A program made the translations under genes and the position numbers. From NCBI GenBank assembly GCA_964489445.1, contig CAZAYU010000006.1:53518-117517 (forward strand): 64,000 nucleotides of DNA. Reading direction: 5' to 3'. Of the stretch, positions 977 through 54,107 are shown one piece after another; the stretch's first letter is position 1; every line of letters starts with the position of its first letter. Source of the stretch: an uncultured Planctomycetia bacterium (GTDB taxonomy: Bacteria; Omnitrophota; Gorgyraeia; Duberdicusellales; 4484-171). Below the pieces are notes generated by a model. That model saw only the letters and a list, made by a program, of their open reading frames with translations, did no database searches and was not told the origin of the DNA.

Positions 977-2215
977 TCAAATACGATAACCAAAGCACCC
1001 TCCCTGGCAAACAGTCTTGTCGCCAAGATTGGAAGATTTATTTTTTAATTGACGCTTATAGTTACTAAAATACTTACAAGTTTTACAGTCCTCCATAAGA
1101 GGCTGCAAACATAGCTGTTCTATAGGCGCCTTAAACTGCCGATCCATTTCTTGACGGGTAGTATCAGGTGTAATCTTCTTCCCTTTAATATGAACAACAG
1201 GACAAGGATAACAAGTTAAGTCTGGATTTACGGTTATCAAATTAGCATAGTCACCATTAACGTCAAAACAATCACACCGATAATCAAATAAAAACGGAGA
1301 TATGGAATTTAGAAATTTGATTTCTTCTTTATTGAACATGCACAAGAATAAAGGCCGATAAAAGAAAAATAAAATATTATTCACATAGGCATAAGAAGAA
1401 ATATCCATAATTTGCTTAGCTAGTTTTCTCATATTCTGTCTTAATTTCTGAGGAGTTAAAGTATTCTGATTCCTGGGCAAAGCTGTACTAAAACGCAAAA
1501 CTATCTGATCGGAACACTGCTTAATCGTATCAATGAACCCTTGCCAATTATCATCTTCACACTGAATAACCCATGACGCTACTAGAGGAATACCTTTATC
1601 GAGAGCCTCTGTAATATTTCGATAGAAAATGCTTTTCTTCTCTTGCGATAAATTATTCTGAGGATAACTAAAATTTATAGACTCTATTAAACACCTATCC
1701 AGTAGAGAGCTTGTTTCACGGTTATATAAACCATTAGTAGAAAGAGAAATGCTAAGCTTGTGCCGACGGGCTATCTCCAATACACTTTTAAATTCAGGGT
1801 ATACGGTAGGCTCTCCCCCTAAAAGCCGAAAACTTTCCCATCCTTGAGACTTTGCCCAATGAGCTAAAAACTCAAAATCAGCTAAAGACATATGCTGTTT
1901 AAACTCTTCTCGAGGAATCTGCGCATAACAAAAAGAACAATTTACATTGCAATAGTAAGTTACACAAACACGCAAAATCTTCTTATGTGTTTTGCTACTT
2001 TTATTCACCTGAATGCTTCTATCCAAAAGAAGTCTTTGTTTGTAACGTATGTGTACTTTATTTAACCACAGCAGAGAAGGAAACATAAGCCTTACCAACC
2101 TAATAATAATTATACACAGCAACGAGATAACTACCTGAAAACGATAAGCAGGCAGGTTAAATAATTCTTTAATTCTCGTAAATTCTGTTTTATAGATTAT
2201 CATTGCATTACCCAA
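977..2215 (-). CDS. Radical SAM/SPASM-domain protein, membrane-anchored (family A)
   Basis: CNVNCSFC (CxxxCxxC) followed by LGGEPTVYPEF, with a Cys-rich C-terminus (CYPCPVV…CKTCKYF…VCQGGCFGYRI). There is an N-terminal hydrophobic helix. The track start is TTG; ATG 12 nt downstream at 2203 is an alternative. Confidence 0.75.
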   Translation of the reverse strand: MGNAMIIYKTEFTRIKELFNLPAYRFQVVISLLCIIIIRLVRLMFPSLLWLNKVHIRYKQRLLLDRSIQVNKSSKTHKKILRVCVTYYCNVNCSFCYAQIPREEFKQHMSLADFEFLAHWAKSQGWESFRLLGGEPTVYPEFKSVLEIARRHKLSISLSTNGLYNRETSSLLDRCLIESINFSYPQNNLSQEKKSIFYRNITEALDKGIPLVASWVIQCEDDNWQGFIDTIKQCSDQIVLRFSTALPRNQNTLTPQKLRQNMRKLAKQIMDISSYAYVNNILFFFYRPLFLCMFNKEEIKFLNSISPFLFDYRCDCFDVNGDYANLITVNPDLTCYPCPVVHIKGKKITPDTTRQEMDRQFKAPIEQLCLQPLMEDCKTCKYFSNYKRQLKNKSSNLGDKTVCQGGCFGYRI

Positions 2216-2240
2216 TAATTTTTTTCTCTAGCCTATGGCT

Positions 2241-3473
2241 TCAACGATAACCAAAACATCCGCCTTGGCAAACTGTTTTATCCGCTAAATCAAAAGATTT
2301 TTGTTTTATTTGCCTTTGATACTTAGCAAAAAAATCGCAAGTTTTACATGAATCCATTAACGGCTGCGCAGACATTGTGCTTACCACATGTTTAAAGCGA
2401 TGTTCAATGTCACTTAAGTTAACCTTCGGGCCGATTTTTACACCACCAGTACGCACAACAGGACAGGGATAGCAACTTAAATCCGGATTAACAGTCAGCC
2501 TTAGCCCAGCATAGTTATCGCCTAAATTAAGAGGACAACGAGTATAGTACACGAAGGGACTTATTGAATCTAAGTAATCAAAATCGGCGTCAGACAGCAT
2601 GCAGCGCAAAAAAGGCCGGTAAAAATGGAATGTCACATGGTTTTTAAGAGCATAATTGGCAATATCTAAGGCTTGCCTTGACATTTTTTTAAAATTCTCC
2701 CTTACGCGTTCAAAGCTAGAACATTTCTCATTATTCGGCAGAACCATGCTAAAGCGTACCACAATATTAGGCCGGTACTTACTGGCTAAATCAATCACCT
2801 GGCGCCAATCTTCTTTGTCGGGATATATAACGCACGACATAATTAATTCCGTTTCTTTATCCATAGCATTCTTAAGATTTTGATGAAAAAGTTTCTTCTC
2901 ATCCCGGTTATTTTCATCTTGAGGATAACTAAAATTTATTGACCGCACTACTTTATCACCAAGGAAAAGACTTATTTCAGAATTAAATAAACCATTAGTC
3001 GAAAGATCAATATAAAATCCTTTTTTTTCTGTCATACTTAATATGCTTTTAAATTCAGGATGCACAGTCGGTTCACCACCCAAAAACCTGATCGCTTTCC
3101 ACCCCTGGAGTTTTGCCCAATTAAGCAAAAAATCAAAATCACTCAAAACCATATGGTGTTTAAATTCTTCTTGAAAGCTCCTAGAATAACAAAAAGAACA
3201 TTCCTTATTGCAACTATAAGTAATACAAACTCGTAAAGTTTCTAAATTAGCCAGTATTTTCGGAGCCCTAATTAACTTTTGCTTGTGTCGCGCATATGCT
3301 ATCTTTAAAGGTTCTGTAGAAATTTTACATTTTCTTAATACGGAGATTAAATAAGTTATTCCCACTGACAAAATAATGCGCGAGAAAGGCACACGCCTAG
3401 ATTCAGCCATTATTTTTATGAAAATAATTTTACTTATCAAATTCTCCCAATACTTTTTAAAAATACCTTTCAT
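2241..3473 (-). CDS. Radical SAM/SPASM-domain protein, tandem paralogue of the 977..2215 gene
   Basis: CNKECSFC followed by LGGEPTVHPEF, and the same C-terminal CQGGCFGYR motif. The N-terminal TM helix and ATG start are as in the neighbour. Confidence 0.75.
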   Translation of the reverse strand: MKGIFKKYWENLISKIIFIKIMAESRRVPFSRIILSVGITYLISVLRKCKISTEPLKIAYARHKQKLIRAPKILANLETLRVCITYSCNKECSFCYSRSFQEEFKHHMVLSDFDFLLNWAKLQGWKAIRFLGGEPTVHPEFKSILSMTEKKGFYIDLSTNGLFNSEISLFLGDKVVRSINFSYPQDENNRDEKKLFHQNLKNAMDKETELIMSCVIYPDKEDWRQVIDLASKYRPNIVVRFSMVLPNNEKCSSFERVRENFKKMSRQALDIANYALKNHVTFHFYRPFLRCMLSDADFDYLDSISPFVYYTRCPLNLGDNYAGLRLTVNPDLSCYPCPVVRTGGVKIGPKVNLSDIEHRFKHVVSTMSAQPLMDSCKTCDFFAKYQRQIKQKSFDLADKTVCQGGCFGYR

Positions 3474-3562: not shown

Positions 3563-4663
3563 TTAAAAAACTAACTGTACCTGAAGAGCGACTTTATTCC
3601 TAGGCTTTGAGCCGTAATTCTCTTCCGCACTGCGAATAATGTAATTTAACTTTATATTATTTAAGGTTCCTTCTTTCAAAAACCAAGTTAGACCAACAGT
3701 AACCGTTTCGATGCCTGTATTGCTAATCTCTGAGTCCTTCTCGTACCAAGCGTAACGTACCGGAATTTCAATCCAGGATAAGGGTTTAAAACCAACCATC
3801 GCATACCACCCTCGAGGTTTCTGGGTGGGAAATTGAAACCTTTCTACACCGTTTACTTCTGAAAACCCTTCGTGCAACGCCTGCAAGTACTCATAAACAA
3901 CTCTAAATTTCCCGCTATTATATGCAATATCCACACCATAAGCATGTTCCGGCAAATTTCGCTCTTCGTTCCGACCTAAATCCGAAACAACATCTACCTG
4001 AGAATATCCGTGGAATCCGGAAACACCAAGTTCTAATCCCTCTAAAGGGCTAAGCCATAGCCGGCCGGTAAAATCTTTTTTCTCGTTATCGTCAAAATGA
4101 TCCAACCCGGCTCCAGTAGTAACAGAAAAAATATACCCCCAAGGAAATTTAGTTTCCAAAAAATTGCCCCATAACCATACTCCCTTATCATAACCATAAT
4201 TACCATTTCTACCCATACTCAACCATATTCCGTCAATGACTTCCGGTCGGAGAATAAACGGAATCTTCGGTAATATTTCTGTTCCAGAGCGAGAAAATCT
4301 GTACCACGATTGTCCTACCTTGATATTAACAGCAGAATTAACTTTTAGATTAAACCAAGCATCCAAAAGAGTCGCAGGGTCATTGTAAGTCAACCTTCCC
4401 CACTCTGACAAAAACATATAATCAATCCGGGAATTTAAATTACCCCTAACCCCCAATCTTACCCTAGCTATTTTTAAATCTTCGCCATGAGTTTTTCCGG
4501 CAGTATTATCATACTGGGCCCATAAATGGGTGAACCCGAAGGCATTAATCGTAAATTCATCTTCATTTTGATCTACTTCTTCAGAAAAACAAAAATTAGT
4601 GCTCGCCAAAATAAAAACAAAAACAACAGTTAATATTAAACTTGCACCGCGTTTTAAATTCAT
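3563..4663 (-). CDS. Outer-membrane beta-barrel protein (porin-like)
   Basis: Signal peptide MNLKRGASLILTVVFVFILAS. The body has alternating hydrophobic beta-strand patterns rich in aromatic/Gly residues and ends in the typical …ALQVQLVF C-terminal Phe. Confidence 0.55.
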   Translation of the reverse strand: MNLKRGASLILTVVFVFILASTNFCFSEEVDQNEDEFTINAFGFTHLWAQYDNTAGKTHGEDLKIARVRLGVRGNLNSRIDYMFLSEWGRLTYNDPATLLDAWFNLKVNSAVNIKVGQSWYRFSRSGTEILPKIPFILRPEVIDGIWLSMGRNGNYGYDKGVWLWGNFLETKFPWGYIFSVTTGAGLDHFDDNEKKDFTGRLWLSPLEGLELGVSGFHGYSQVDVVSDLGRNEERNLPEHAYGVDIAYNSGKFRVVYEYLQALHEGFSEVNGVERFQFPTQKPRGWYAMVGFKPLSWIEIPVRYAWYEKDSEISNTGIETVTVGLTWFLKEGTLNNIKLNYIIRSAEENYGSKPRNKVALQVQLVF

Positions 4664-4710: not shown

Positions 4711-7491
4711 TCACGAAAAACAAGAACTCTGATTGTGCCATCTAAGATTCAAGCACCCCCCCTGACAAACTCTTTGGCTAAAAAAATCCTTACTTTTTTG
4801 AGAATTCTTATCATTTAAACTATTCATAAAAAGATCATGCGCCAGGCACTCATTACATGATTCAATCAAACAATTAGAAATTAGCTGTGCTGTATTTTTC
4901 TTTAAAAAAGCATTTAACTCTTTCCTATTTTTGAATTTCAATATATTCTCGTTCTTCATAAAAACTGAATAACAAAATGAAAAACTTAAATCAGGATTTA
5001 CAGTAAGCATATACGTATACCGGCCTTTATACCCTATCGGACACCTAGTGTATGCCACATAAGGAGAAATTTCCTTAAGCTTCTTCCACTCTTTATCCGA
5101 GAACATGCACACAGGAATGGGGCGGTAGTTATAAAACGGTATCCTCAACCTTACACATTCCTTCTGAATCTGCATTATTTGACGAAAGAAATGTTGACTA
5201 TAATCAAATATATTGCACCCAAGATTTTGCTTCGATGAATCCGGCAATGCCAAACTTGTCCTCACAAACGTTGGTTTGTAATATTCTACATCGAAAAACA
5301 ATTTTCTCAAGTCTTCTTTGTCCTTACCTATTATATAAGAGAATCCAAAACTTATATTTCTTGCTTTCCACTCCTTAAGATTCCGATCAAAAAATCGCTG
5401 CTGGCTAGAATTTGCAACCTGGCGGGCATTATAATTTACAATAACATTTTCATGCCAAAAACTTTTTACATTTGAAATAATCCGGCTGGGAAAAACATTA
5501 TTTGTTGCTATTGTTATAAACATTTTATGTTTATAACACAATTTAAGCATATCACTAAAATCTGGATGAAGCGTCGGTTCTCCTCCCAAAAAAACCATTC
5601 TATTCCATTTGTTTTTCTTAGCCCAAATTAATAGGCGATAGAAATCATTTAGTGTCATATCATTTGGTATTTTTTCCTTAAAATCTCGTGCATAGCAATA
5701 TTTGCAAGATAAATTACATTTATACGTTGTGCATACTTTCAATAAGGAATCTTGCATCCGAGGCAACCAGTCAGGTTTTCTTGTGTGCACATGGTAATGT
5801 AGTTGGCTCCAAGCGTCCCTTCTTGACCATCTTTTACTCGAAAAGATTAGCAATTGATAGAAAACAGTCAAATAAGATTTAAAATAAAAAAAAGAATAAC
5901 CTAGCAATCTTCCAGATAACCATAACCTCCTGACTTTATTAATAATTCTGTGAATTATTTTCTTTTGGGAATTTATTGTAATAACGGCTATTTCAATCGT
6001 TCTTTGACGAATACGTTTAAAATTCAATTTGAATGATACAATAAATAGATACAAATGATGCCATACTGAATGCAACACCATAAACTTATACTTATCAAGA
6101 TGCCTGATTGGTTTTTTACATATTGCTTTTATGCGAATAGCTTTCATTTTCTTAACGATCTTCTTTCTTAGCTTGTCATTATTCTGACCAAATAAAAATC
6201 CAGGAACAGAGTAGTTGTTATTTTCAAACTTAAAATCATTATTAAATTTATCCTTGTATATTTCAGAAAGCGTGCTACCCGGCAAAAAGTTTGCAAACAA
6301 AAACCATGCTCTATCCAATCCTAAACTTTCCGCAAAAGATAATGTTTCATTAATCTCTGCTTCCGTTTCCCCCGGAAACCCCAAAATAAAAAAGCTATTG
6401 GTATCTATACCAATTTTCCTTGCTACTTTGACTATTTCTTTTACCTGTATTAGGTTCACAGGCTTTCCAATAAAGGTCTCAAGTATCCGTTTGTTGGCGC
6501 TTTCGATACCTAAAGTTAACTCATAGCAACCACTTTCTTTCATTAATTCCAATAATTTTTCATCCAGTGTCCAAGCTGCAACTCCGTTAGGCATATTCCA
6601 ATGTATATTAAATTTCCGTTTAATCATGCCTTCAAACAACTCCACTGTTCTTTTTTTATCTTGTGTTAGATTATCATCAATAAATTGTACTTCTCTTATC
6701 GAAAACTTTTTAATTAATTCTTCAATCTCGTTTAATACATTTTCTGTTGTCCGAACCCGGTATCTTCTTCCCCAATAATTACTTGATGAACAAAATTGGC
6801 AATCCTCTAAACAACCTCGTGAGGTTATCAAGGTTGTATTGCGTTTAGTTTTAGAAATGTGCCCGGGAGGCCTGTTGATGCTATAATATTCTTCCATTGG
6901 TATTAACTGGCGAGCAGGAAAAGAAATATCATCTAAACACCGAATAAAATTATTCTTTTTATTTACAATAATTTCTTTTCCGTTCCGCCAAGCTATTCCA
7001 TCTAAATCGTAAACCGAACGGCTTAAATTGAGCCGAGATAACAGTTCTTTGAAAGAACTTTCTCCTTCACCAAGCACAATGAAATCTATATCAGTATCCC
7101 GCATGCATTCTCGAGCAAGAAAAGTAGGATGGCTGCCGCCGATAACAGTAACAATCTCTTTATTAAGAAATTTTACCTCTTTGCAAATACTTTGAGCAGC
7201 TATGAATTGGCTTGAAAATAAGCAGCTAATACCGACTACATCCGGAGTGAATATTCTAATTTCTTCTTTAATCTTTCCCATCTTTAAACCATGACGATAA
7301 CGTTTCTCTCCTGCTAAAACTCGATGTTTAAATCCTTCAACTACACAATCTAAGATTTTTACATTAAAATCATCTTTAATCGCGCTGGCAATATAAGCTA
7401 GTCCTAGGGGAGGAGTAACAACTTCGTAACTTCCTGTCGGCAATAAGAATGGTGGAAAAATCAAAAGTACATTTTTTATTTTTTTACTCAT
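4711..7491 (-). CDS. Fusion protein: cobalamin-binding (class B) radical SAM domain + family-A SPASM radical SAM domain
   Basis: N-terminal B12-binding-like domain (…VIGGSHPTF…) then radical SAM TSRGCLEDCQFC. The C-terminal ~400 aa is paralogous to ORFs 977/2241, including the hydrophobic linker, CTTYKCNLSCKYCYA, LGGEPTLHPDF and the terminal VCQGGC. Confidence 0.75.
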   Translation of the reverse strand: MSKKIKNVLLIFPPFLLPTGSYEVVTPPLGLAYIASAIKDDFNVKILDCVVEGFKHRVLAGEKRYRHGLKMGKIKEEIRIFTPDVVGISCLFSSQFIAAQSICKEVKFLNKEIVTVIGGSHPTFLARECMRDTDIDFIVLGEGESSFKELLSRLNLSRSVYDLDGIAWRNGKEIIVNKKNNFIRCLDDISFPARQLIPMEEYYSINRPPGHISKTKRNTTLITSRGCLEDCQFCSSSNYWGRRYRVRTTENVLNEIEELIKKFSIREVQFIDDNLTQDKKRTVELFEGMIKRKFNIHWNMPNGVAAWTLDEKLLELMKESGCYELTLGIESANKRILETFIGKPVNLIQVKEIVKVARKIGIDTNSFFILGFPGETEAEINETLSFAESLGLDRAWFLFANFLPGSTLSEIYKDKFNNDFKFENNNYSVPGFLFGQNNDKLRKKIVKKMKAIRIKAICKKPIRHLDKYKFMVLHSVWHHLYLFIVSFKLNFKRIRQRTIEIAVITINSQKKIIHRIINKVRRLWLSGRLLGYSFFYFKSYLTVFYQLLIFSSKRWSRRDAWSQLHYHVHTRKPDWLPRMQDSLLKVCTTYKCNLSCKYCYARDFKEKIPNDMTLNDFYRLLIWAKKNKWNRMVFLGGEPTLHPDFSDMLKLCYKHKMFITIATNNVFPSRIISNVKSFWHENVIVNYNARQVANSSQQRFFDRNLKEWKARNISFGFSYIIGKDKEDLRKLFFDVEYYKPTFVRTSLALPDSSKQNLGCNIFDYSQHFFRQIMQIQKECVRLRIPFYNYRPIPVCMFSDKEWKKLKEISPYVAYTRCPIGYKGRYTYMLTVNPDLSFSFCYSVFMKNENILKFKNRKELNAFLKKNTAQLISNCLIESCNECLAHDLFMNSLNDKNSQKSKDFFSQRVCQGGCLNLRWHNQSSCFS

Positions 7492-7523: not shown

Positions 7524-8768
7524 TTACCATACCTGATTCCGAGTCACATCAAATAGAGTCTCTTTCTTTCTGATTAATTCCACTTTTTTTGATGAATTTA
7601 AAAAATAAACAGCACTTCTCGGCCGAGAAAATTGATTAGCATACGGGATAGAATAAGCTCCAACACCAAAAATTACCAAGATATCCCCCCTTTCTATGCT
7701 AGGACTCCAAACATTCAGAAAAAGCTTATCGAAAGAATTAACTGACGCACTATAAATATTTACCTTCTCCATCGGGCTTTGCTTTACTTTATTCGCAATT
7801 AAAAATCCTCTATTTTTAAAAAGCGGACGGTATCCAAGATCATTCATTAAAATATCCGTATACACATTTCTTCCTTTCTTCTCAACAATTTTTCCAACCA
7901 AAATAGCACTATTACCCATTATCGACCTTCCTGGCTCAAGAGAAATATTTAGATTTAATCTTGTTTTTCTGAAATTAGCATCATAACCCCTCTCAATCGC
8001 TTTAATAAAATGCTCCAGACTTACAGGAAATTTAGAAAAAAACGGAAAAGCATGTTGTATTCCTTGGGAAGGAAATCCTCCGCCAAGATTTATTTCTCTA
8101 ATGTCAACACCCCGAACTTTGAATTGCTTGGCTAAACTAAATAGGTTTTTTAATGATTTTTGGTAATAGGCCGGCTTAACAAAAGAAAAAGTAAGATGTG
8201 CCAATAGCCCCTTAATGTCAACAAAAGAGTACTTATCGAAATTATTTAAAAGATATCTTACTTCCTGTGAACCTAGCCCATAGCTCCTTTGGCCCGTAGT
8301 TAGAAAAATATTTCTTAAATCATACGAACTTACCTGAGGATCTATACGTAAACCAATGTTAACTTTTAGCAATTGCCCTTTGGCAATCTTATTCAAACGG
8401 TTCAATTCATCTATTGAATCAATATTAATCAATTGGATATTTTTTTCTACACATTTTTTTAAGAAAGCATCGGATTTATTCGTACCGTCTACAATAATAT
8501 CAAAGTGGGGAAATTGTGCTTTTTCCGCTAAAAACATATCTAAGTCTCCAGAAACCTCAGCCCCTAAGCCCATCTTTCTTATAGTCTGGAGCACTCTTGA
8601 TTCGTAATTTGTTTTAAGGGAATAATAAATCTTAGTATTAGGTTTACTTTTCGTAAGACGAAGCAGAATGCTACAATTCTTCGTAATTATGTTTTCGGAA
8701 ATTACAAAAAATGGTGTAGCGGTTCTTTTTGAAAAATCAACAATATCCAAACCTTCGAAATAATACAT
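7524..8768 (-). CDS. PLP-dependent decarboxylase, Orn/DAP/Arg decarboxylase (fold-III, LysA-like) family
   Basis: YSLKTN (PLP-Lys motif YAxKAN-like), GGGFPS and EPGRSIMG motifs, with TIM-barrel plus beta-sandwich domain order. Confidence 0.65.
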   Translation of the reverse strand: MYYFEGLDIVDFSKRTATPFFVISENIITKNCSILLRLTKSKPNTKIYYSLKTNYESRVLQTIRKMGLGAEVSGDLDMFLAEKAQFPHFDIIVDGTNKSDAFLKKCVEKNIQLINIDSIDELNRLNKIAKGQLLKVNIGLRIDPQVSSYDLRNIFLTTGQRSYGLGSQEVRYLLNNFDKYSFVDIKGLLAHLTFSFVKPAYYQKSLKNLFSLAKQFKVRGVDIREINLGGGFPSQGIQHAFPFFSKFPVSLEHFIKAIERGYDANFRKTRLNLNISLEPGRSIMGNSAILVGKIVEKKGRNVYTDILMNDLGYRPLFKNRGFLIANKVKQSPMEKVNIYSASVNSFDKLFLNVWSPSIERGDILVIFGVGAYSIPYANQFSRPRSAVYFLNSSKKVELIRKKETLFDVTRNQVW

Positions 8769-8891: not shown

Positions 8892-9905
8892 TTAAATAGC
8901 ATTATCAATGTACCGCTTTCGAAACTGCTGATTTCTCATAACACAATCAGAAGAATCGATTACTTTATATAGTAGATGACCATTCATCTTCCGCCAAAGA
9001 ATAACTAACGAATTTTCCCGGACATTACCAAAACGAAGCGGAACAAAATTACACGGTTGAATATCACCATAAGGTGAAACATAAAACAGCTTCTTTAGAA
9101 CCGCATTGCATCGTGAATAATAACTACAGATTGCTTCCAGATGAACGTAACAAGGATCAAGAAGACCATTGATATACTTTTTTTCCTGCTGCGACAACAT
9201 CATCTCGCAACTATTTAGCCACTTTCCTCCAGGAATAGCAAAAAGCAACACCACCCCTTTCGCTTTTAATTCTCTTGCCAGCTTAATGATCGATGGTATT
9301 TCATCTTTCCTGCAGATATTTTCTTTTGAAACGCACACAGAAACAAAAACAGTAATATTTTCTTCAACACACATCGAAATTGCTTTTTTTGCTTTTTCAA
9401 ACAAGCCAATACGCTTTCGGAATTTATCGTGAATTTTCGGATATGAACTATCAATACTGATATTTATAAATGTAAGACCCCGATTTTTTAATTGCCGGAT
9501 CTTTTCCCGCGTTAATAATAACGCATTAGTGCTAACAGCAGTAATCAGCCCTTTTTTTGCCGTATACTCAACTAACTCACTTATGTCTTCCCTTAATAAC
9601 GGTTCGCCACCGGTAAAATTAACAAAATAAACACCTAATTTATAAGCTTGAAAAATCACCTTTATTACTTCTTCTGTGCTTAATTCTTTCTTGCTACTAT
9701 TCAAACTCCTTTCAATCCCGCAGTGCACACAGTCCAATTGGCATCTATCAGTAACCCCTAAAATAAGCGTATTCGGAGCACTCATCCATGGTAGATTATT
9801 CATGAGTTTACGCAATATAATATTGGTTTTTCTAAAAAAAGAGAACGGTCTCAAAAATACATCATACTGATACTTTTTTTGATTTAACCAATTAGCAATA
9901 TTCAT
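8892..9905 (-). CDS. Radical SAM protein with SPASM/twitch-like C-terminus
   Basis: GVTDRCQLDCVHCGI followed by FTGGEPLLRED, with C-terminal Cys cluster CSYYSRCNAV…PCNFVP. Confidence 0.75.
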   Translation of the reverse strand: MNIANWLNQKKYQYDVFLRPFSFFRKTNIILRKLMNNLPWMSAPNTLILGVTDRCQLDCVHCGIERSLNSSKKELSTEEVIKVIFQAYKLGVYFVNFTGGEPLLREDISELVEYTAKKGLITAVSTNALLLTREKIRQLKNRGLTFINISIDSSYPKIHDKFRKRIGLFEKAKKAISMCVEENITVFVSVCVSKENICRKDEIPSIIKLARELKAKGVVLLFAIPGGKWLNSCEMMLSQQEKKYINGLLDPCYVHLEAICSYYSRCNAVLKKLFYVSPYGDIQPCNFVPLRFGNVRENSLVILWRKMNGHLLYKVIDSSDCVMRNQQFRKRYIDNAI

Positions 9906-9967
9906 AAAATGCTATTATCCAAATTCTTCTTTAAATTTTAGAGGTAACCCGATATTATTTAAATATG

Positions 9968-10774: not shown

Positions 10775-10864
10775 ATCTAAAAATTACCAACATTCCTATT
10801 TATCGGCCAAAAACAATACTTGAATTGCAAAAAACATTTACTGCTGCACAACAGAGTAAGCCCC

Positions 10865-12934: not shown

Positions 12935-13043
12935 TTTGCCCTAATTTCTTTGCACTAACTAACTGCATAGACATTATTTTTATTACTCACTCAGGCAAAA
13001 CATATTTTAAAAATATATACTCCTCAAAGTACTTTTCTGCCTA

Positions 13044-14207: not shown

Positions 14208-14232
14208 AGTTATTAAAATAAATAATTTTGAC

Positions 14233-14973: not shown

Positions 14974-15031
14974 CTAACCAATCACTTTTTTTTAATAACC
15001 GACCCTTAGCGCTTATTGAGATATGGCCTAC

Positions 15032-35993: not shown

Positions 35994-36005
35994 ATTTTTT
36001 TTAAA

Positions 36006-36890: not shown

Positions 36891-36915
36891 TAATCAACAT
36901 CAAAAAATACATTTA

Positions 36916-38604: not shown

Positions 38605-38613
38605 TATTGCCGA

Positions 38614-39880: not shown

Positions 39881-39889
39881 AGTATCCTC

Positions 39890-47000: not shown

Positions 47001-49001
47001 TTAATAGTTATCTGGATTAATATGCAACCCCTGCAAACACGGTTCTTTACAATTTTTTATTCTCTCTAGTTCTTTTTGATAATCGCTTGAGTTAAAAACA
47101 TCTTTGAACCTCAATTTATATAATGGCATATTTATTTCTGTTCCACACAAATACGGCTTACCTTCAAAAGTAATATTTAATGATTCAAATCCGGTTAAGC
47201 AACGATTTGATTTTTTAAGCTTATTATCAAAATAGTCAATATATCGTTCAACAACCGAAACCGGACGAGCACTTATATCAGGGTTATTCTTTACATACTC
47301 AATAATATCCTTCAACTTATTTTTTTCCAACTCTGTTATCAAAAAATTCCCTTTAACATGGCATAGTTCATTGTTTGGAATAACTGGCTGGATGTCAACC
47401 CTTACCCCCTTATACTGTTTAAGCAACATTAAAAATGCAATATAATGCATGAAATTCTCCGGCATCAATATCGAACTTACTGTTAAAAAATTAATCCTCT
47501 GCAATTTATAATAATTATGATAAATTGCTTTAAAATTAAAAAACGACTTTTGAAAAGCGCCACTTCCACGAATAAAATCATGAGTATATTCCAGCCCATC
47601 GATTGAAAAAATTATTCCTATTTTCTTTAATTCTTCTTTTGAAAAATTATTCAAAAATTCCTCATTAAATAGAATCCCATTAGATATAATATTGACTGTA
47701 GCAATATCTGTTGCGCAAACAAATTTAATTATTTCCGGTAAATCTTTACGTAACAGCGGCTCTCCCCCACCAAATGTGATTCTTTCAATATTGCAATCAT
47801 TATTTAAATTAAGAATCAGCCTCTTCCACTCTTCCTTAGTAATTTCATCTTGGATATCAAATTTACCCTTACCAGTAGTGCACATAATGCATTTAAGATT
47901 ACAGCGATTAGTAATCGCAATATAAAACTCTGTGATATTGAACTCCTTTCTATCCATTATTACTTTCTTGCTGCTACTTTCTTCGTCTAAGCAACGTTTT
48001 AGCTCTTGATTAATTGCTTTAATTGGACTACAACAGCTATCCCAGCAAAGAGTGCTATCGTAATAGTGCTTATATTGTTCGATTAGTTTATAGTAAATAT
48101 CACCTAAGTCCTCATCGTAAACATTAAATGGTGTTTTTTGAGGATCACCGTTACACTTTAATACTTGCCCCTGACAATCAATTAAAATTTTATATAAGTA
48201 GAAAAAACATTTATTTTTTGCAATACTTGATATTTCCGAATTAATTTTTTGGATATCAGCGCAAGATTCATTGTCTAACCATTCTGCTCGGTTAAAATTA
48301 ACAGGAGTATCCATATTTTTTAATCTATATTTAAAATCTATTATCTGTTTGTCTGCAGGCAATAGCTCATTAAACTTTTGTGTCATTTTGACTAATTTGA
48401 TTAAAGTTACATTCTTTATTCTATAAAGCTCTGATTTTAAAAAATAATTTTCCACGTTATCATAGTTAATATTTGTCACTACCATATTAAGATTTAAATT
48501 AAGAGTTGGATTATTTTTAACGGTAAATTCTAAGAACCCTATTATTCTCTGTAAATAATCATCACCACCACAAGCCGGTTTTAATTTATACTGAATAGCT
48601 GGAACAAATGAATCTAAAGATATAGTCACTACATCCCAACCTATTTTTTTTATAAATTGCGCAAATTCTAAATCAAGTTTGCTACCGTTAGTCAATAAAG
48701 TACCAATGAGTTTTCTCTTTTTAATCTCTTCCATTAAAAATTTAATATCCTCGACTATTGTTGGTTCGCCAATTAAAGATGTTAACGAAATTTCCTGAGT
48801 TCCCATCTTTTTTGCAGCATTAAGAATTTTTATTAAAACATCTCTGGATAAATATTTATGCTCATTATGTTTTACACTTCCGGAGCAATACAAACAATTT
48901 AGATTACAAAAATTATTAATAACTAAATCAATGCAATAAGGTCCTTTTTCCACGCCTTTCAACCTTTTCTTAAACCAAGAATAAAACTCTTTTGAAATCA
49001 T
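47001..49001 (-). CDS. Double radical SAM protein (two tandem rSAM/SPASM modules)
   Basis: Module 1 has VINNFCNLNCLYCSGS. Module 2 has IAITNRCNLKCIMCTT and FGGGEPLLRKD, with C-terminal CKEPCLQG. Confidence 0.75.
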   Translation of the reverse strand: MISKEFYSWFKKRLKGVEKGPYCIDLVINNFCNLNCLYCSGSVKHNEHKYLSRDVLIKILNAAKKMGTQEISLTSLIGEPTIVEDIKFLMEEIKKRKLIGTLLTNGSKLDLEFAQFIKKIGWDVVTISLDSFVPAIQYKLKPACGGDDYLQRIIGFLEFTVKNNPTLNLNLNMVVTNINYDNVENYFLKSELYRIKNVTLIKLVKMTQKFNELLPADKQIIDFKYRLKNMDTPVNFNRAEWLDNESCADIQKINSEISSIAKNKCFFYLYKILIDCQGQVLKCNGDPQKTPFNVYDEDLGDIYYKLIEQYKHYYDSTLCWDSCCSPIKAINQELKRCLDEESSSKKVIMDRKEFNITEFYIAITNRCNLKCIMCTTGKGKFDIQDEITKEEWKRLILNLNNDCNIERITFGGGEPLLRKDLPEIIKFVCATDIATVNIISNGILFNEEFLNNFSKEELKKIGIIFSIDGLEYTHDFIRGSGAFQKSFFNFKAIYHNYYKLQRINFLTVSSILMPENFMHYIAFLMLLKQYKGVRVDIQPVIPNNELCHVKGNFLITELEKNKLKDIIEYVKNNPDISARPVSVVERYIDYFDNKLKKSNRCLTGFESLNITFEGKPYLCGTEINMPLYKLRFKDVFNSSDYQKELERIKNCKEPCLQGLHINPDNY

Positions 49002-49095: not shown

Positions 49096-52071
49096 TCAAT
49101 TACAAAGCACTTTAATTGCTTCCCTGATTCTTTCCTTTTGGCTATGCGCCTTTGAAGGAGAAAAAAAAGCATATCCGTCAGCTTTTGTTAAATAATTTAA
49201 AAGCAACCGTAAGTCATTGATTAAATATTGTTTTCCGCCACCAAGGCAATTGATTTTCAAATTATTGCTAGATCTTAATAATACTTCCATATTTTCGATT
49301 ATCAGAGAATAACTATTATTCATTAATTCCTGTAACGGTAACATCGGATACAATGATACATATTTTTCTAAGAAACGTAATTCTTGAAATATCAAAAATA
49401 AATTTCTTTTGCTACACAGCCGGCTGTGTATCTCTTCTGCCGAATCGGAAGACGGCCGTATAGAACAAAATTGAACACAATTATTTCGACAGTTTCTTAT
49501 TGTGTTTCTGAAATGTTCGGCATCTTTTGAAAACCATACAGTATCCCAAGAATCCTTGTCACCCTCTCCAAAATGCTGTAATTTTCTATCATTTGGCCCA
49601 TTACACACAAAGCATAATTTCTTTCCCACAAGTATTGCACGAGTAAAGCCAGCATAACATTTATCTACATATACAGCTTTTGAAAAATAAGTATATATTT
49701 TTTCACAAGGAATTTCTACATGTATTGGCATCCGTTTCTTTTTTTCTTCAATCTTTCTTAAAGCATCATCTAAATCCGGAAGTCGCTGTTCAGGTATCCA
49801 AAATTCGCTGCTTCTCATTCCTTTTAAGTCAGTATTGCACACGTAAGGTTGGACACAAATGCCACAAAGATCATACTCAAGACAAAAGTCTAGCATATCA
49901 TACATAGTATCAAGCGTTTGGTTCATTAAAATAGATAGAGTATTTACCCGCGGAAAAATCTTTTTTCTCCTTTTTTTCTCTACATTAATATAATTAATCG
50001 CTTCTATTGCTTGTTCAAAAACTCCTTCACCCCGCAATGAATTATGAATATCAGCATTTGGTGAATCTATAGAAATACCTAAGGTATCAAGCTCTACGTC
50101 TATCAATCTATCTATAATCTTTCTGCTTAAAATTGTTCCGTTAGTGTTAAGATGGACTATTATTCCAGGATAATAATCTTTTACATATTTTACAAGATTA
50201 AATATGTCTGGCCGCATTAATGCTTCTCCGCCAGTAAAATATACTTGCTTGAGATTACCTAGCTTATACACATCATCAATGCTCTTTTTAACATAAAACA
50301 TATCTAGTTCATCTTCGTTAGCATTCCAAACTCCGCACATTTTACAACGCAAATTACATTTTGTAGTAAGCAACAATTGATACATAAACGGCCCCACTAA
50401 AGGTTTATTTAGATAAAGCGAAAAATTATACAGATAATCTTCCTGAATATTTTTAAGAAAATCTAATTGTCCCTTGTCATCTTCTATTGAATAATTAAAG
50501 ATATTTACATCTTCCTCTAACATCAAACAACCTTTTGCCGAATCAATCTTGCTATCAATAATTTTGTCCTTTACTCCGTTATCGTTAGCATCTTTAGCTT
50601 TTATATAATAGGCTAAGGCTTGCTTGTGCTCATTATTCTCAATGCGCTTATCTCCTAGAAATAGATAATATTCAGATGGAGAGTAAAAACTATCTTCTTC
50701 CCGGCCAATATAATTATTGCAAAATTCTAGAATCTCTATTCTCTTTTGTAATGTATTCTCCCCATCTCTAGAGTGCCATCGCACAGAATTAAAATTATCT
50801 TCAAGCTCAATGCCAAAATCTCTTCTATTTTCATAGATATACGTTCCTTTAGCTATTACTAATAAATGAAAAAGAACCTTACCAATAAATCGTCTGTTAC
50901 GCTTAATAAATTCTGCTGTAAGGATAATATCCACATCTTCTTCTCCGGGAAGCCCTATTATCAACGTAACATCTGCTGTTATTCCTGCTGTATGAGTATT
51001 CTGTAGCACCAACTCTACCAATTCAGGCGTAAAACGTTTACCAATAGTCTTTAATGTTTTCGGGCTTAAACTTTCTAATCCGTAAGTAATGTGTGAGCAA
51101 CCTGCCATTTTCATTTTACTTAATAGATCTAAATTCATTTCTTCTCGTATACTAGCCTGCCCTCCCCAGTTAAGCTTTATTTTACTATCAACCAAACGAT
51201 CACAAAGACCATTCAATACTTTTAAATCTCCATTAATAAGAGAATCATTTAAAAATAGTGAACTAATACAAGGATGCTTATTGATTTGGTACATAATTTC
51301 ATCAAATATATTTCCTGCACTCCGTGTCCTGTATTTTTTCCAGTTTCTTGACTCACTGCAGAATATACATTTATTAATGCAGCCTCTACTAGTTGATATT
51401 GCTAACTTATGACTGTGAAACTCATCTAAATGATATTTATCAAAATTAAAATCAGAATAATCAGCAAAAGGCAATTCATCTAAATTCTCTATTAATTCTT
51501 CTTCCGGACAGCTTATGATATCATTGTTAATGTCTCGAAAAGCTATTCCATTTAAACCGCTAACCTTACCACATCTTTCTACTATAGCTACTATCTGAGG
51601 AAGAACTTTTTCTCCTTCAAGATAACAAATAGCATCTACAAACTGATTAGTATGTAATAAAGATGCCCCCATCTCAGACTTAGTACAATGCGGTCCGCCA
51701 AAAATAATAATTTTATCGCTATTCTCCTCTTTAACCCTCCGAGCTATTTCTTCAGAAAAAAGACGATTTAATCCCGTAATGGTAAACCCGATTGTTTTAT
51801 AACCAATACTAATAATTGACTTTACACATTCTTCTATAAACTCCCCGTATAAATTGATTATTTTTTTAACAAAATCATCATTATACCAATCTGTGGGCCT
51901 ATCATATAAGGAGTTTTTCCTCAGCCCAACTAAATAATTATAAAATTCAATATTAAAATCTAAGCATTTTACCTTATAGCCTTCTGCCTGGCATGCTGCC
52001 TTAAGCAAGGCTAGACTATAGGGTGGTGAATGTATCGACCAACAAGGAGCTTGAACAATGACCAGGCTCAT
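49096..52071 (-). CDS. Fusion protein: cobalamin-binding (class B) radical SAM + family-B SPASM radical SAM + ~120-aa C-terminal tail
   Basis: MSLVIVQAPCW, …FGGPHCTKSE…, STSRGCINKCIFCSE. The second module has LLTTKCNLRCKMCGV and FTGGEALMRPD, with CRNNCVQFC. Confidence 0.75.
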   Translation of the reverse strand: MSLVIVQAPCWSIHSPPYSLALLKAACQAEGYKVKCLDFNIEFYNYLVGLRKNSLYDRPTDWYNDDFVKKIINLYGEFIEECVKSIISIGYKTIGFTITGLNRLFSEEIARRVKEENSDKIIIFGGPHCTKSEMGASLLHTNQFVDAICYLEGEKVLPQIVAIVERCGKVSGLNGIAFRDINNDIISCPEEELIENLDELPFADYSDFNFDKYHLDEFHSHKLAISTSRGCINKCIFCSESRNWKKYRTRSAGNIFDEIMYQINKHPCISSLFLNDSLINGDLKVLNGLCDRLVDSKIKLNWGGQASIREEMNLDLLSKMKMAGCSHITYGLESLSPKTLKTIGKRFTPELVELVLQNTHTAGITADVTLIIGLPGEEDVDIILTAEFIKRNRRFIGKVLFHLLVIAKGTYIYENRRDFGIELEDNFNSVRWHSRDGENTLQKRIEILEFCNNYIGREEDSFYSPSEYYLFLGDKRIENNEHKQALAYYIKAKDANDNGVKDKIIDSKIDSAKGCLMLEEDVNIFNYSIEDDKGQLDFLKNIQEDYLYNFSLYLNKPLVGPFMYQLLLTTKCNLRCKMCGVWNANEDELDMFYVKKSIDDVYKLGNLKQVYFTGGEALMRPDIFNLVKYVKDYYPGIIVHLNTNGTILSRKIIDRLIDVELDTLGISIDSPNADIHNSLRGEGVFEQAIEAINYINVEKKRRKKIFPRVNTLSILMNQTLDTMYDMLDFCLEYDLCGICVQPYVCNTDLKGMRSSEFWIPEQRLPDLDDALRKIEEKKKRMPIHVEIPCEKIYTYFSKAVYVDKCYAGFTRAILVGKKLCFVCNGPNDRKLQHFGEGDKDSWDTVWFSKDAEHFRNTIRNCRNNCVQFCSIRPSSDSAEEIHSRLCSKRNLFLIFQELRFLEKYVSLYPMLPLQELMNNSYSLIIENMEVLLRSSNNLKINCLGGGKQYLINDLRLLLNYLTKADGYAFFSPSKAHSQKERIREAIKVLCN

Positions 52072-52201: not shown

Positions 52202-53203
52202 TTATACATCGTCACAGAAGCATGGTAACAAACATGGCCATGCGCATCTTTTTACCTGATTTCTTGCCTGAATTATTTCCTTGCTCATAAGGACATCTTT
52301 TAATAACGTGTTTTTTAAACTTCCATACACAGAAAAACACGTTCGACATTTTCCATCATTAGCCACCAGAATTGTTCTGTCCGCAGACAAACATTTAGCA
52401 TTTTCCGGCAATAATCTGTTGCAGTAATAGTCTCTCATTAACAACAAGTTGGTAATTGAATTCTTTATAAAATCCGGTTTTTCTTTTTTTAACTCTATCA
52501 GTTTACTTAAGGAATCATCCAGTATATTTAGCCGATCTTTAAGAACCCAAAATTCAGATTTCTTTCGTTCATTCATCCTTAGATTATTGGGAAGCAGCGC
52601 TTGAAATTGTAATGAATCTGCACCTAAAGATTCAACAAAAGCAGCAATGTCCGCTAATTCTTCTAAATTATGATTCAAAATTATAGTAATTACGTTAAAT
52701 TTTACCTGCGAATTACTTTTCTTCAAGCAAGAAAGAACACCAAGCCCTTCTACTGTTTTCTTCCAAGCATTATCATAGTTGCGGATATAATTATGGGTAT
52801 CTGCTTTTAATGAGTCTAAAGAAAAGACCAACGAAATAGTATTATCCAGGATATAGGGCTCTAATCTGTTAATATTTTCCGCAATCATTATCCCATTTGT
52901 CAAAACACCTAAATTTTTAATATTTATATTTCTTGCGTAATCAAATATTTCATATATATCTTTTCTTATTAGTGGCTCACCTCCAGAAAGAGCAATTTCA
53001 TTTATCCCCAGTTTTTTAGCTTGATCAAGCACCCGCTGGACATGATAAATATCTATATCTTTTTCGGAAATACCAGTTTTCCATATATCACAAATACGAC
53101 ACTTTAGATTGCAGGAATGTGTAATATCTAAGATGATAAGCCGAGGCAGATAAAGATTATTAACTTTGTTTAACATTGCCAGACTGAATTCGGAAATATT
53201 CAT
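52202..53203 (-). CDS. Radical SAM/SPASM protein (family B)
   Basis: DITHSCNLKCRICDI followed by LSGGEPLIRKD, with C-terminal CAWPCLLPC. The track start (53242) is TTG and overlaps the upstream GT2; ATG (MNISEF) is at 53203. Confidence 0.7.
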   Translation of the reverse strand: MNISEFSLAMLNKVNNLYLPRLIILDITHSCNLKCRICDIWKTGISEKDIDIYHVQRVLDQAKKLGINEIALSGGEPLIRKDIYEIFDYARNINIKNLGVLTNGIMIAENINRLEPYILDNTISLVFSLDSLKADTHNYIRNYDNAWKKTVEGLGVLSCLKKSNSQVKFNVITIILNHNLEELADIAAFVESLGADSLQFQALLPNNLRMNERKKSEFWVLKDRLNILDDSLSKLIELKKEKPDFIKNSITNLLLMRDYYCNRLLPENAKCLSADRTILVANDGKCRTCFSVYGSLKNTLLKDVLMSKEIIQARNQVKRCAWPCLLPCFCDDV

Positions 53204-54107
53204 GAATATTTCCAAAAATATAAAAAATTTTATGAAGAGCAAAATAAATATAAACAGTTATTCGTCGAGCCCCTGTCCCCTTACTCTGATGTTTAAGAAA
53301 TTGTTTACCTAATATACAGCTAAATCGTGGAATTTTAATAAGATTGCCTAATGTCGATAGCCAAAAAGAACTTCTTCCTATTTTTAGTTCTTTTAATAAA
53401 ACATGACTATTGTTTTTATATTTTGTTAATAGGTTACCTCTTCCGTAAATATAAGCTTGTTCAAGAAAGCTTATGAATGTATCCTCGCGATAATGAATAA
53501 CTCTTATTTTTTTATCCCAGATAAATCTATGGCCATCCTTGAACAGACGCCAAAAAAAATCTAAATCTTCGCCTCCCGGCAAAGGAAAATCTTTATCAAA
53601 TTTATATTTCTCAAAAATTTCTCTCTTAAGAGAAACATTGCAAGTAGGAAAAAATATTATTTCTTCTTTGCCATCAATATTGGTATTAATACTACACGTA
53701 CTTAAGAATTGACTAACCAATACAGCAATCTTAGGCGATCGAGAATAAGTACCTCCACCTACAGCCGAGACATCGGGGTTATCCTTATGTATTTTAACCA
53801 TCAATTCCACCCAATTTTTCTCAGCAACACAATCATCATCAGTGAATAAAACTATTTTTCCTTGGGCAGCTTCTACTCCTAAATTTCTTGCTACAGCTGG
53901 ACCCCTAGAAAGTTGAGAAACATAAACTAAATTACCAAAGTTAAATTTTATTTGAAAAATTAACTTCTTTATCTCTTTATTTGCTCGATCATCAACAACT
54001 ATAACCTCAAACTTATTTAGAGGATAGTTCTGCTTAGCTAAAGAACTCAAGCAATCAATTAATTTTTTCTTTCTGCCACACGTAGGTACTACTACCGAAA
54101 CTTCCAT
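53160..54107 (-). CDS. Glycosyltransferase family 2
   Basis: VVVPTCGRKKKLIDCL…VIVVDD…LFTDDDC GT-A motifs. Confidence 0.75.
   Translation of the reverse strand: MEVSVVVPTCGRKKKLIDCLSSLAKQNYPLNKFEVIVVDDRANKEIKKLIFQIKFNFGNLVYVSQLSRGPAVARNLGVEAAQGKIVLFTDDDCVAEKNWVELMVKIHKDNPDVSAVGGGTYSRSPKIAVLVSQFLSTCSINTNIDGKEEIIFFPTCNVSLKREIFEKYKFDKDFPLPGGEDLDFFWRLFKDGHRFIWDKKIRVIHYREDTFISFLEQAYIYGRGNLLTKYKNNSHVLLKELKIGRSSFWLSTLGNLIKIPRFSCILGKQFLKHQSKGTGARRITVYIYFALHKIFYIFGNIHEYFRIQSGNVKQS

Follow-up and report, generated by a model that had tools for sequence, protein, structure and literature searches.

Radical SAM genes arrayed among Wzm/Wzt and glycosyltransferase genes in Omnitrophota

Why would a gene array that encodes glycosyltransferases and an ATP-binding cassette (ABC) exporter of the Wzm/Wzt kind also encode seventeen radical S-adenosylmethionine (SAM) enzymes? 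The question is raised by a stretch of 64,000 nucleotides (contig CAZAYU010000006.1, assembly GCA_964489445.1), here called the window, from an uncultured bacterium of the Omnitrophota. The window is 93% coding, with about 33% G+C, and is occupied by a single-strand gene array. All 46 array open reading frames (ORFs) of at least 150 amino acids are encoded on the minus strand, where neighbours either overlap or are separated by small gaps, and 17 of the 46 code for radical SAM (rSAM) proteins. An earlier reading of the sequence alone, which we call the original prediction, had described an exceptional island of 17 rSAM genes and 21 rSAM domains, and had proposed that they tailor a surface glycan.

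The radical SAM array and its relatives

The inventory of rSAM genes held in full. The 17 ORFs (977 to 52202, genes being named by their first coordinate in the window) are present on the minus strand, and each has a CxxxCxxC motif and a Radical_SAM (PF04055) match above the Pfam gathering threshold (45-131 bits, cut-off 29.5). Two such stretches are found in each of 4711, 44900, 47001 and 49096, which gives 21 domains in total. The motif occurs 22 times, against 0.33 +/- 0.57 expected from 1000 within-protein shuffles. A GGEP motif, ascribed to every rSAM gene in the original prediction, is literally present in only 13 of the 17 (14 of the 21 domains); 25534, 27794 and 31702 lack it, as do 49096 in both of its domains and 4711 and 47001 in their N-terminal ones. 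Four of the five predicted B12-binding-like N-termini exceed the PF02310 cut-off of 32.1 bits (4711, 76.1; 31702, 74.5; 25534, 38.2; 49096, 33.9), while the fifth, 27794, is slightly below it (30.2 bits) and matches NCBIfam B12-rSAM families at 1e-41. The SPASM-like C-termini attributed to most of these proteins are borne out as widespread Cys-rich tails, but Pfam SPASM (PF13186) passes its threshold only in 8892, 10865, 18835, 21203 and 44900, with a weak match in 20054; the tails of the remaining rSAM proteins are Cys-rich without a Pfam SPASM call.

The rSAM genes are indeed interleaved with Wzm/Wzt, tailoring genes and glycosyltransferases, the latter comprising by Pfam five of family 2 (GT2) and two of family 4 (GT4). 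The C-type (GT-C) calls, 29953 and 62737, rest on PMT_2 matches below the gathering score. The limits first given to the feature were too narrow. Several metagenome contigs, of up to 111-122 kb, carry the same sequence. Past position 64000 there are three further B12-rSAM genes, a GT2, a WbqC protein and a GT-C-like gene. Before position 1 follow, in order, an NMT1/OpuAC-type binding protein, a B12-rSAM, two permeases, an ATPase and another B12-rSAM, and beyond the latter a second ABC-2 pair and then pyruvate:ferredoxin oxidoreductase. The whole island thus extends past both window ends, with a count of at least 22 rSAM genes over about 85 kb.

Rather than a one-off island, the array is an expanded member of a cassette family conserved across Omnitrophota, since the same synteny is found in about 30 genomes and some relatives are denser. 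A search with 22287 gave a family of 1276 homologues, the best of which (about 100) share 48-69% identity with it (the top ones 55-69%). It has seven conserved C-terminal Cys with non-canonical spacing and no PF13186 match. The GTDB species representatives were scanned for patterns of the 22287-family alignment and yielded 30 true loci, labelled as Candidatus Omnitrophota (21, among them Ca. Undivivens industriae), Planctomycetia or Planctomycetales (six), bacterium only (two) and Paceibacterota (one); related loci bear L numbers below. Comparison of their ORFs with the window proteins gave a syntenic core that begins (flavoprotein) - Wzm - Wzt - (GH44-like protein) - GT2-rSAM - (B12-rSAM) and continues with the orthologues of 22287-21203-20054-18835, the orthologue of the GT2 17477, a membrane coiled-coil protein, a B12-rSAM and a GT2. 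Over the 30 loci the orthologues of the four tandem rSAMs are 39-68% identical, always beside a GT2 and usually beside Wzm/Wzt, and the 21203 orthologue invariably adjoins that of 22287. The adjacency of Wzm (56848, ABC2_membrane) and Wzt (54112, ABC_tran) within a glycosyltransferase operon is conserved as well, with Wzm orthologues of 38-49% identity directly upstream of Wzt in L029, L031, L032 and L035-L038. The gene-neighbourhood comparison proposed with the original prediction therefore favours it on the association of rSAM genes with Wzm/Wzt and GT2.

Minimal cassettes (L031, L035-L038) have seven or eight rSAM genes, and expanded ones gain orthologues of 49096, 47001, 44900 and 43718. 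There are 15 rSAM genes in 21 kb in L028, 12 genes in L042 and 11 in 13 kb in L050, a 234-kb contig. The rSAM paralogues of the window are at most 44% identical in an all-against-all comparison, which rules out recent duplication as the origin of the array. A literature search on radical SAM together with Wzm/Wzt, O-antigen, capsule, Omnitrophota or Velamenicoccus returned no description of such a cassette, and a 2026 review of B12-dependent rSAM enzymes does not mention polysaccharides or glycans.

The L050 cassette is headed by a gene for an initiating transferase of the Glycos_transf_4 (WecA/MraY) type. In minimal cassettes a protein of about 716-722 amino acids with a partial Glyco_hydro_44 match, absent from the window, lies between Wzt and GT2-rSAM (L036, 4500-6650; L050, 5957-8125). 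Contigs assigned to Patescibacteria (the Candidate Phyla Radiation) also carry the cassette, namely L045, from a Paceibacterota metagenome-assembled genome (MAG), and L050, named as a Patescibacteria group bacterium. These represent either horizontal transfer or mis-assignment; if they are real, the product in those hosts cannot be a lipopolysaccharide O-antigen.

Links between radical SAM enzymes and glycan genes

One physical tie is a fusion, seen in L036, where a single protein of 634 amino acids with Pfam GT2, Radical_SAM and SPASM domains corresponds to both the GT2 53160 and the rSAM 52202. The same single ORF (about 630-644 amino acids) recurs in 16 loci, and genes called independently in L050 also give one ORF. 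Among 1.84 billion representatives searched, the closest relatives of 52202 are mostly 597-643 amino acids long with the rSAM domain in the C-terminal half. Judging from these sequences, the fused GT2-rSAM is the normal state of the family, from which the window genes would have split off. The window GT2 matches residues 1-310 of the 634-amino acid fusion of L016 in frame 1, both genes overlap by 83 nt, and a single frame change in an A/T-rich stretch near the junction divides the gene. The split appears genuine because independent assemblies give the same two gene calls. Relatives of 52202 include as well many proteins of 1000-1500 amino acids with two to four rSAM stretches (for example P0306, P0310 and P0384), so that multi-rSAM fusions are common in this family.

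A second tie is a domain shared by Wzt and one rSAM. The ATPase of Wzt (residues 1-225) is followed by three domains of about 220 amino acids (233-454, 465-679 and 688-909), a triple repeat kept in all orthologues. Residues 509-726 of the B12-type rSAM 27794 are homologous to these repeats (blastp E = 5e-22 to repeat 3; hidden Markov model E = 2e-57). A fold search of the predicted model assigned the domain as galactose-mutarotase-like; the repeat profile had no match among PDB sequences, and only the fold search was informative. The sharing of this carbohydrate-binding-type domain supports a connection of the rSAMs to the glycan. A metagenome scan with a single-domain query found no further fusions of it.

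Three groups can be distinguished among the rSAM domains. Group A comprises 977, 2241 and the C-terminal half of 4711; the B12 type comprises 25534, 27794, 31702 and the N-terminal halves of 4711 and 49096; and a SPASM/twitch-like group takes in all the others. The solved structures closest to the B12 type are AprD4, QCMT (9CCB) and TokK, with 31702 matching AprD4 (6fd2) at E = 1.2e-24. For the other rSAMs they are BlsE, GDGT-MAS, MoaA and viperin. The B12-type enzymes may depend on cobalamin, judging only by their Rossmann-type domain; AprD4 has a Rossmann-like domain and does not bind cobalamin. No specific reaction can be assigned by homology because none of these proteins reaches the cut-off of a characterised family, so that C-methylation, epimerisation, oxidation, ring contraction and C-C crosslinks are to be taken as analogies.

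The product of the cassette and competing explanations

What the cassette makes is probably an envelope glycan or glycoconjugate. We consider the window an expanded Omnitrophota version of a cassette for an ABC-transporter-dependent polymer, whose sugars would be remodelled in the cytoplasm by many rSAMs before export. Domain content and synteny carry this reading. It is further favoured by the WecA-type initiator of L050, by the glycan-gene surroundings of two homologues of the N-terminal half of 4711, by the non-rSAM genes, which are standard for polysaccharides, by the lack of a conserved precursor ORF or PqqD-like match, and by the placement of all genes on one strand. The functions that go beyond domain content and synteny, given in what follows, are those we infer. 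The glycan would be assembled on a polyprenyl-phosphate carrier at the cytoplasmic face of the membrane, since only there could oxygen-sensitive, reductant-dependent rSAMs work, a location that also fits the ABC-transporter-dependent route. The GT2-rSAM enzyme would transfer a sugar and then alter it radically, and the tandem SPASM/twitch-like and B12-type rSAMs would introduce further C-H-based changes, possibly methylation, oxidation, epimerisation, decarboxylation or ring rearrangement. Wzt would read the finished, modified chain through its three mutarotase-like domains and export it with Wzm, while the rSAM 27794 might dock on the same polymer through the fourth copy of the domain. Conventional tailoring genes would supply carbamoyl, amidino, amide, methyl and acyl groups.

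Side branches might be made separately. In the block 35049-29953 an ArnC-like GT2 and a YdjC deacetylase occur together with an AsnB amidotransferase, the rSAM 31702 and a GT-C-like protein, and the block looks like a polyprenyl-phosphate sugar branch pathway in which, by analogy, a lipid-linked amino sugar would be deacetylated and then radically rearranged. The ArnC-like GT2s would build such sugars on polyprenyl phosphate, the YdjC deacetylase would trim them, the HpnJ-like 31702 would perhaps rearrange them, and the GT-C-like enzymes would attach them outside the membrane. Decoration of the Arn type (ArnB/ArnC/ArnD/ArnT; GtrABC) offers a parallel to the DegT 59200, the ArnC-like 61417 and 35049 and the GT-C-like 62737 and 29953, with the YdjC-type 36006 acting after transfer to the lipid analogously to ArnD. 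Unlike in those systems, an rSAM (31702) and an amidotransferase are inserted, and the ArnC, DegT and other Arn-type matches are all under the equivalog cut-offs.

The export pathway itself is of a known kind. Like the ABC pathways for O-antigens and capsules, for example those of the E. coli O9a and Klebsiella O-antigens, the cassette has adjacent Wzm and Wzt with cytoplasmic glycosyltransferases, a carbohydrate-binding-type C-terminal extension of Wzt and, in L050, a WecA-family initiator. Furthermore, the coiled-coil protein of variable length recalls the WbdD molecular ruler of O-antigen systems, and could be a chain-length ruler or a scaffold. In contrast to canonical Wzt, which has a single Wzt_C jelly-roll of about 150 amino acids, the cassette protein has three mutarotase-like domains of about 220; the operon includes seven to more than 20 rSAMs, of which one is joined to a GT2; and neither a WbdD-type kinase/methyltransferase terminator nor a WaaL ligase is found in the window. 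The novelty lies in the conserved embedded rSAM assembly line, in the bifunctional GT2-rSAM enzyme and in the mutarotase-like triple domain on Wzt.

Several results weigh against the glycan reading. None of the 17 window rSAMs reaches any NCBIfam curated cut-off; the named equivalogs compared include HpnJ, HpnH, PhpK/Sden_1168, BchE, MoaA, NirJ/AhbD, PqqE, MftC, BlsE, Tes, anSME, viperin and PapB, and the best ratios of score to cut-off are 281.8/575 (N-terminal half of 4711 to Sden_1168) and 208.6/577.6 (31702 to HpnJ). For three B12-type rSAMs the best match, at about half the cut-off, is a subfamily of C-methyltransferases acting on peptides made on ribosomes and modified after translation (RiPPs), and the nearest solved structures are distant and include peptide-modifying enzymes. 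By Pfam there is no polyprenyl-phosphate initiating transferase in the window or the flanks covered, and the window has no O-antigen ligase or polymer acceptor. The model of the mutarotase-like domain has a pLDDT of 74.6 and one disordered loop and derives from a 4-sequence alignment, Pfam matches nothing in Wzt beyond residue 161 (the canonical Wzt_C, PF14524, included), and the fusion of an rSAM to a carbohydrate-binding-type domain is documented only in this lineage. Lastly, one homologue of the N-terminal half of 4711 stands isolated in a non-glycan context. On balance the rSAM-tailored glycan first proposed keeps the support of synteny, of the GT2-rSAM fusion and of the domain common to Wzt and 27794, but the array is neither unique nor linked to a glycan in its entirety.

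The alternative that survives best is a glycolipid or a modified membrane or carrier lipid, with most rSAMs acting on the lipid, the glycosyltransferases adding a head group and the ABC-2 pump moving the product. The models would be Tes/GDGT-MAS, Mss, Hbs, HpnR/HpnP and the ladderane-type B12-rSAMs, with methylation, cyclisation or cross-linking as chemistry. We find it unlikely. There are matches in NCBIfam and PDB to Tes/GDGT-MAS, HpnH, HpnJ, HpnR and a ladderane lipid B12-rSAM, but they are weak and far under cut-off (Tes, 28-84 bits against 450); some Omnitrophota have homologues of Mss and Hbs, although Mss was reported in just 15 of 267 Omnitrophota MAGs. The flavoprotein 15032 is distant kin of the phytoene-desaturase/HpnE type, yet no lipid-synthesis gene (prenyl synthase, cyclase or acyltransferase) was found in the window or the core, and the rSAM fusion partners are a glycosyltransferase and a carbohydrate-binding-type fold instead of lipid-binding domains. 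The best named matches of 31702 and 36006, HpnJ and HpnK, act on a lipid-linked sugar, and the window resembles the HpnH/HpnI/HpnJ/HpnK hopanoid pathway in having a B12-type rSAM, a YdjC-family protein and a GT2. In the hopanoid side chain an N-acetylhexosamine is added to the lipid, deacetylated and radically rearranged, giving the bacteriohopanetetrol cyclitol ether. This module, taken as a candidate for the window, was only partly borne out. The YdjC/HpnK-like deacetylase 36006 scores 149 bits against 232.6 for HpnK, the HpnJ score of 31702 given above is also below its cut-off, there is no HpnI match, the GT2 35049 being a polyprenyl-phosphate sugar enzyme of the ArnC/PgfS kind rather than HpnI-like, and squalene-hopene cyclase and other hopanoid genes are missing; the lipid would then be polyprenyl phosphate.

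If the rSAMs matured a peptide or protein instead, possibly the coiled-coil protein, which the glycosyltransferases would glycosylate and the ABC-2 pump export, the locus would be a RiPP-like system. SPASM-type rSAMs are typical RiPP maturases, and the combination of multiple SPASM/B12-type rSAMs with an ABC exporter is shared with clusters of ranthipeptides/PapB, sactipeptides, SCIFF and the PoyC type. The three B12-rSAMs mentioned above match TIGR03975 and ApyD best, SuiB, CteB and SkfB are the nearest structures to the group A model, and the core GT2 17477 has MftF (the mycofactocin glycosyltransferase) and PgaC as its best NCBIfam matches, below cut-off. Every RiPP-family score is, however, at most half its cut-off, and a substrate is missing. 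As the original prediction had stated, the window gaps contain no precursor-like ORF. Over the 30 loci no small intergenic ORF is conserved except for two membrane mini-proteins and the coiled-coil protein, and no RiPP precursor family turned up in the window or in these loci. Apparent conserved small peptides proved to be out-of-frame shadows within rSAM genes. The window rSAMs have no Pfam match to PqqD or a RiPP recognition element (RRE). The core enzymes have 15-55 residues (about 35) ahead of the cluster motif, too few for an RRE, and the model of the group A N-terminal extension has three helices but lacks the beta-sheet that a PqqD-like element would have. Nor was a leader peptidase seen.

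The coiled-coil protein deserves attention in this regard. In the window (16389) it has a 96-bp tandem repeat in 4.5 copies (16810-17239), and its orthologues, of 112 to 385 amino acids, follow the core GT2 in nearly all loci and share the C-terminal motif NCD(S/T)xD...F(F/L)ExIExHLDLKK. Its C-D-x-x-D element, conserved in nearly all loci, resembles the CX3D thioether sites of ranthipeptides. We rejected it as such a site, as the Cys is not universal: it is missing in L042, a locus with 12 rSAM genes, and one motif cannot occupy 7-22 enzymes. With the rSAMs fused to a GT2 and to a carbohydrate-binding-type domain, unlike in RiPP clusters, which have a precursor, an RRE and a protease, we regard a RiPP-like system as improbable. 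Genome-mining tools nevertheless are likely to mislabel such loci as RiPP clusters.

An equally improbable explanation is a diffusible metabolite, a pseudo-oligosaccharide or nucleoside-type compound similar to aminoglycosides, exported by a DrrAB-like ABC-2 pump with no structural polymer involved. Where several rSAMs are known to work on sugars, it is in aminoglycoside and nucleoside pathways (GenK, GenD1, BtrN, AprD4, BlsE), and together with Fom3 and NeoN these enzymes are the precedents for rSAM sugar chemistry. AprD4 is the nearest solved relative of 31702 and BlsE that of the SPASM group, and the window has a TobZ/NodU-type carbamoyltransferase, a DegT aminotransferase, a deacetylase and a decarboxylase dependent on pyridoxal phosphate (PLP). 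The similarity is limited to the rSAM core (E = 1e-11 to 1e-24), and in those pathways one to three rSAMs act on small soluble molecules, whereas here there are many in a polymer-export operon. The ArnC-like GT2s, the GT-C-like proteins, the WecA-type initiator of L050 and a Wzt of 900 amino acids with a triple domain are hallmarks of a lipid-linked polymer, a 2-deoxy-scyllo-inosose synthase or comparable scaffold enzyme is lacking, and secondary-metabolite loci are not typically conserved, with their synteny, over many species of one phylum.

That the rSAMs are housekeeping or defence paralogues (MoaA, NirJ, AhbD, PqqE or viperin-like) merely neighbouring glycan genes is very improbable, for although MoaA, NirJ/AhbD, a tungsten-cofactor maturase and pVip are among the best NCBIfam and PADLOC names, the matches cover the generic rSAM core only and fall short (MoaA 40-130 against 231-325), the partner genes of those pathways are missing, and the synteny with and fusion to GT2 are conserved; by these scores none of the 17 is a housekeeping equivalog, which goes in favour of the original prediction. 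Prokaryotic viperin in particular was discarded, since the PADLOC pVip matches span profile positions 1-175 of about 260 and NCBIfam viperin_w_prok reaches at most 116.6 bits, summed over two domains, against 180.

Returning to the envelope glycan, a wider proposal can be made, more tentatively, as a possibility somewhat short of even: Omnitrophota, and perhaps neighbouring ultra-small lineages, may have a phylum-typical exported envelope polymer in which 7 to more than 20 rSAMs rewrite the sugars, with a bifunctional glycosyltransferase-rSAM and a transporter reading through three domains, that is, a new class of polysaccharide. Such a radical-tailored polysaccharide would have residues (C-methyl, carbocyclic, deoxy or C-C-linked) of which glycans so far give no example. 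Sugar chemistry by rSAMs is known from a few antibiotic pathways and from the side chains of hopanoids, but not from the assembly of polysaccharides, and the cassette would provide a large, coherent set of new sugar-modifying radical enzymes whose place in a pathway is defined. A further implication would be an unusual surface polymer in the Omnitrophota, a widespread and almost uncultured phylum of very small, possibly host-dependent cells whose envelope is essentially unknown. The GT2-rSAM fusion together with the 22287 family constitutes a concrete marker for such loci.

The left-hand module and the remaining genes

Not all of the 17 rSAMs belong to the glycan island, as had been supposed. 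The genes at 977-8768, continuing past position 1, form a conserved module of their own, in which group A rSAMs and B12-rSAMs occur with a porin and an ABC importer. It spans 1-8768 of the window and 11271-20911 of L007, with rSAM genes interleaved with those of a NitT/TauT-type importer. Group A rSAMs are rare, with 45 homologues from Omnitrophica and Elusimicrobia. In the unrelated contigs L047 (Elusimicrobia) and L048 they are accompanied, just as at the left end of the window, by B12-rSAMs and an outer-membrane channel protein, and by NMT1/OpuAC/phosphonate-type binding proteins, permeases and ATPases; the porin of L048 occupies the same position as 3563 in the window. A third locus with a group A homologue, L049, is without this context. 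Because 977, 2241 and 4711 (four domains) are all part of this module, which elsewhere travels with the outer-membrane channel and the importer, their role in glycan tailoring seems doubtful. The module, if the glycan reading is right, would represent another radical pathway, as yet wholly uncharacterised.

Among 5.8 billion clustered proteins the 926-amino acid fusion 4711 has no full-length relative apart from its exact sequence. Its N-terminal half matches stand-alone enzymes of about 510 amino acids at 40-47% identity and has its best family match, at half the cut-off, with a P-methyltransferase family. One homologue of this half is fused to a nucleotidyltransferase and lies beside two STT3 genes, another is beside Wzy, Wzz and flippase genes, and a third is the isolated one mentioned before.

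Table 1 Features of the window, listed from its right-hand end (positions in the 64,000-nucleotide window; core and accessory refer to the conserved cassette)
Feature	Coordinates	Strand	Evidence
Upstream glycan genes: GT4 (57715), DegT/PseC/ArnB-like aminotransferase (59200), LPG_synthase_TM (60275), ArnC-like GT2 (61417), GT-C-like (62737)	57715..63987	-	
Wzm, ABC-2 permease, conserved core	56848..57642	-	Pfam ABC2_membrane 51 bits
Wzt, 909 aa (amino acids), ABC ATPase and three mutarotase-like domains, core	54112..56841	-	
GT2, N-terminal half of putative ancestral GT2-rSAM fusion, core	53160..54107	-	Glycos_transf_2 90.9 bits
rSAM, Cys-rich C-terminus, C-terminal half of putative ancestral GT2-rSAM fusion, core	52202..53242	-	PF04055 73.6 bits
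B12-binding-type rSAM and second rSAM, 991 aa, accessory	49096..52071	-	55-58% orthologues in L028, L042
Double rSAM protein, 666 aa, accessory	47001..49001	-	47-63% orthologues in L026, L028, L042
Double rSAM (rSAM-SPASM and rSAM), 694 aa, accessory	44900..46984	-	SPASM 38.4 bits
rSAM, C-terminal Cys cluster containing CxxxCxxC, accessory	43718..44866	-	PF04055 64 bits; 40-53% orthologues
Two GDSL/SGNH-TPR (tetratricopeptide repeat) genes, tandem duplication, probable O-acyl transfer or esterase	40168..42696	-	Lipase_GDSL_2
Membrane mini-proteins, 75 aa and 53 aa (DUF5989, weak match)	39719..40117	-	
Sugar-tailoring block	35049..39636	-	genes 38614, 36916, 36006, 35049
AsnB-type glutamine amidotransferase, exopolysaccharide-associated type	33123..35039	-	Asn_synthase 203; NCBIfam XrtA/PEP-CTERM amidotransferase 430 bits
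B12-binding-type rSAM, HpnJ-like/AprD4-like	31702..33126	-	PF02310 74.5, PF04055 78.9 bits
GT-C-like membrane protein	29953..31647	-	weak PMT_2, 23.8 bits against gathering 26.1
B12-binding-type rSAM (residues 1-460) and mutarotase-like domain (509-726)	27794..29974	-	
Membrane-anchored coiled-coil protein, paralogue of 16389	27020..27793	-	
B12-binding-type rSAM	25534..26988	-	PF02310 38.2, PF04055 71.7 bits
TPR protein (23843) and 167-aa membrane protein (23350)	23350..25537	-	23350 relatives in L019, L022
Core tandem rSAM 1, best-conserved	22287..23330	-	PF04055 82.4 bits
Core tandem rSAM 2 (SPASM)	21203..22297	-	Pfam
Core tandem rSAM 3	20054..21202	-	orthologues 53-68% identity
Core tandem rSAM 4 (SPASM)	18835..20061	-	orthologues 39-57% identity
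Core GT2, 453 aa, C-terminal extension	17477..18838	-	Pfam GT2 109 bits; orthologues in nearly all loci
Core membrane-hairpin and variable coiled-coil protein	16389..17495	-	tandem repeat, conserved C-terminal motif
UDP-galactopyranose-mutase/amine-oxidase-type flavoprotein (15032), GT2 (14233), GT4 (13044), NAD-dependent sugar epimerase/dehydratase (12023)	12023..16327	-	
rSAM-SPASM (10865), class I SAM methyltransferase (9968), rSAM-SPASM (8892)	8892..11947	-	
PLP-dependent Orn/DAP-type decarboxylase	7524..8768	-	
B12-binding-type rSAM and group A rSAM, 926 aa, first gene of porin/importer module	4711..7491	-	
Outer-membrane porin, O/P type	3563..4663	-	Porin_O_P 45.5 bits
Two group A rSAMs (2241, 977), helical N-terminal extension, Cys-rich C-terminus	977..3473	-	
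NMT1/OpuAC-type periplasmic binding protein, 3' part, start of ABC importer	1..912	-	

No Rfam family matches the window, which accordingly lacks a cobalamin or SAM riboswitch even though these cofactors are in demand, and a tRNA scan found no tRNA genes in it. The signal of a promoter and terminator scan was not above that of shuffles. Every gene of the window is on the minus strand, and GC skew is negative across the entire window.

In the sugar-tailoring block, 38614 codes for a WbuX-like amidotransferase and 36916 for a carbamoyltransferase of the NodU/TobZ type. Both mini-proteins lie upstream of these two genes. The pair recurs in L023 and the smaller one in L018, only alongside a carbamoyltransferase; they are not RiPP precursors. 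The GDSL/SGNH-TPR genes next to them form a direct repeat with a spacing of 1293 nt and 98-100% identity. This duplication is recent, because the copies differ only near the C-terminus.

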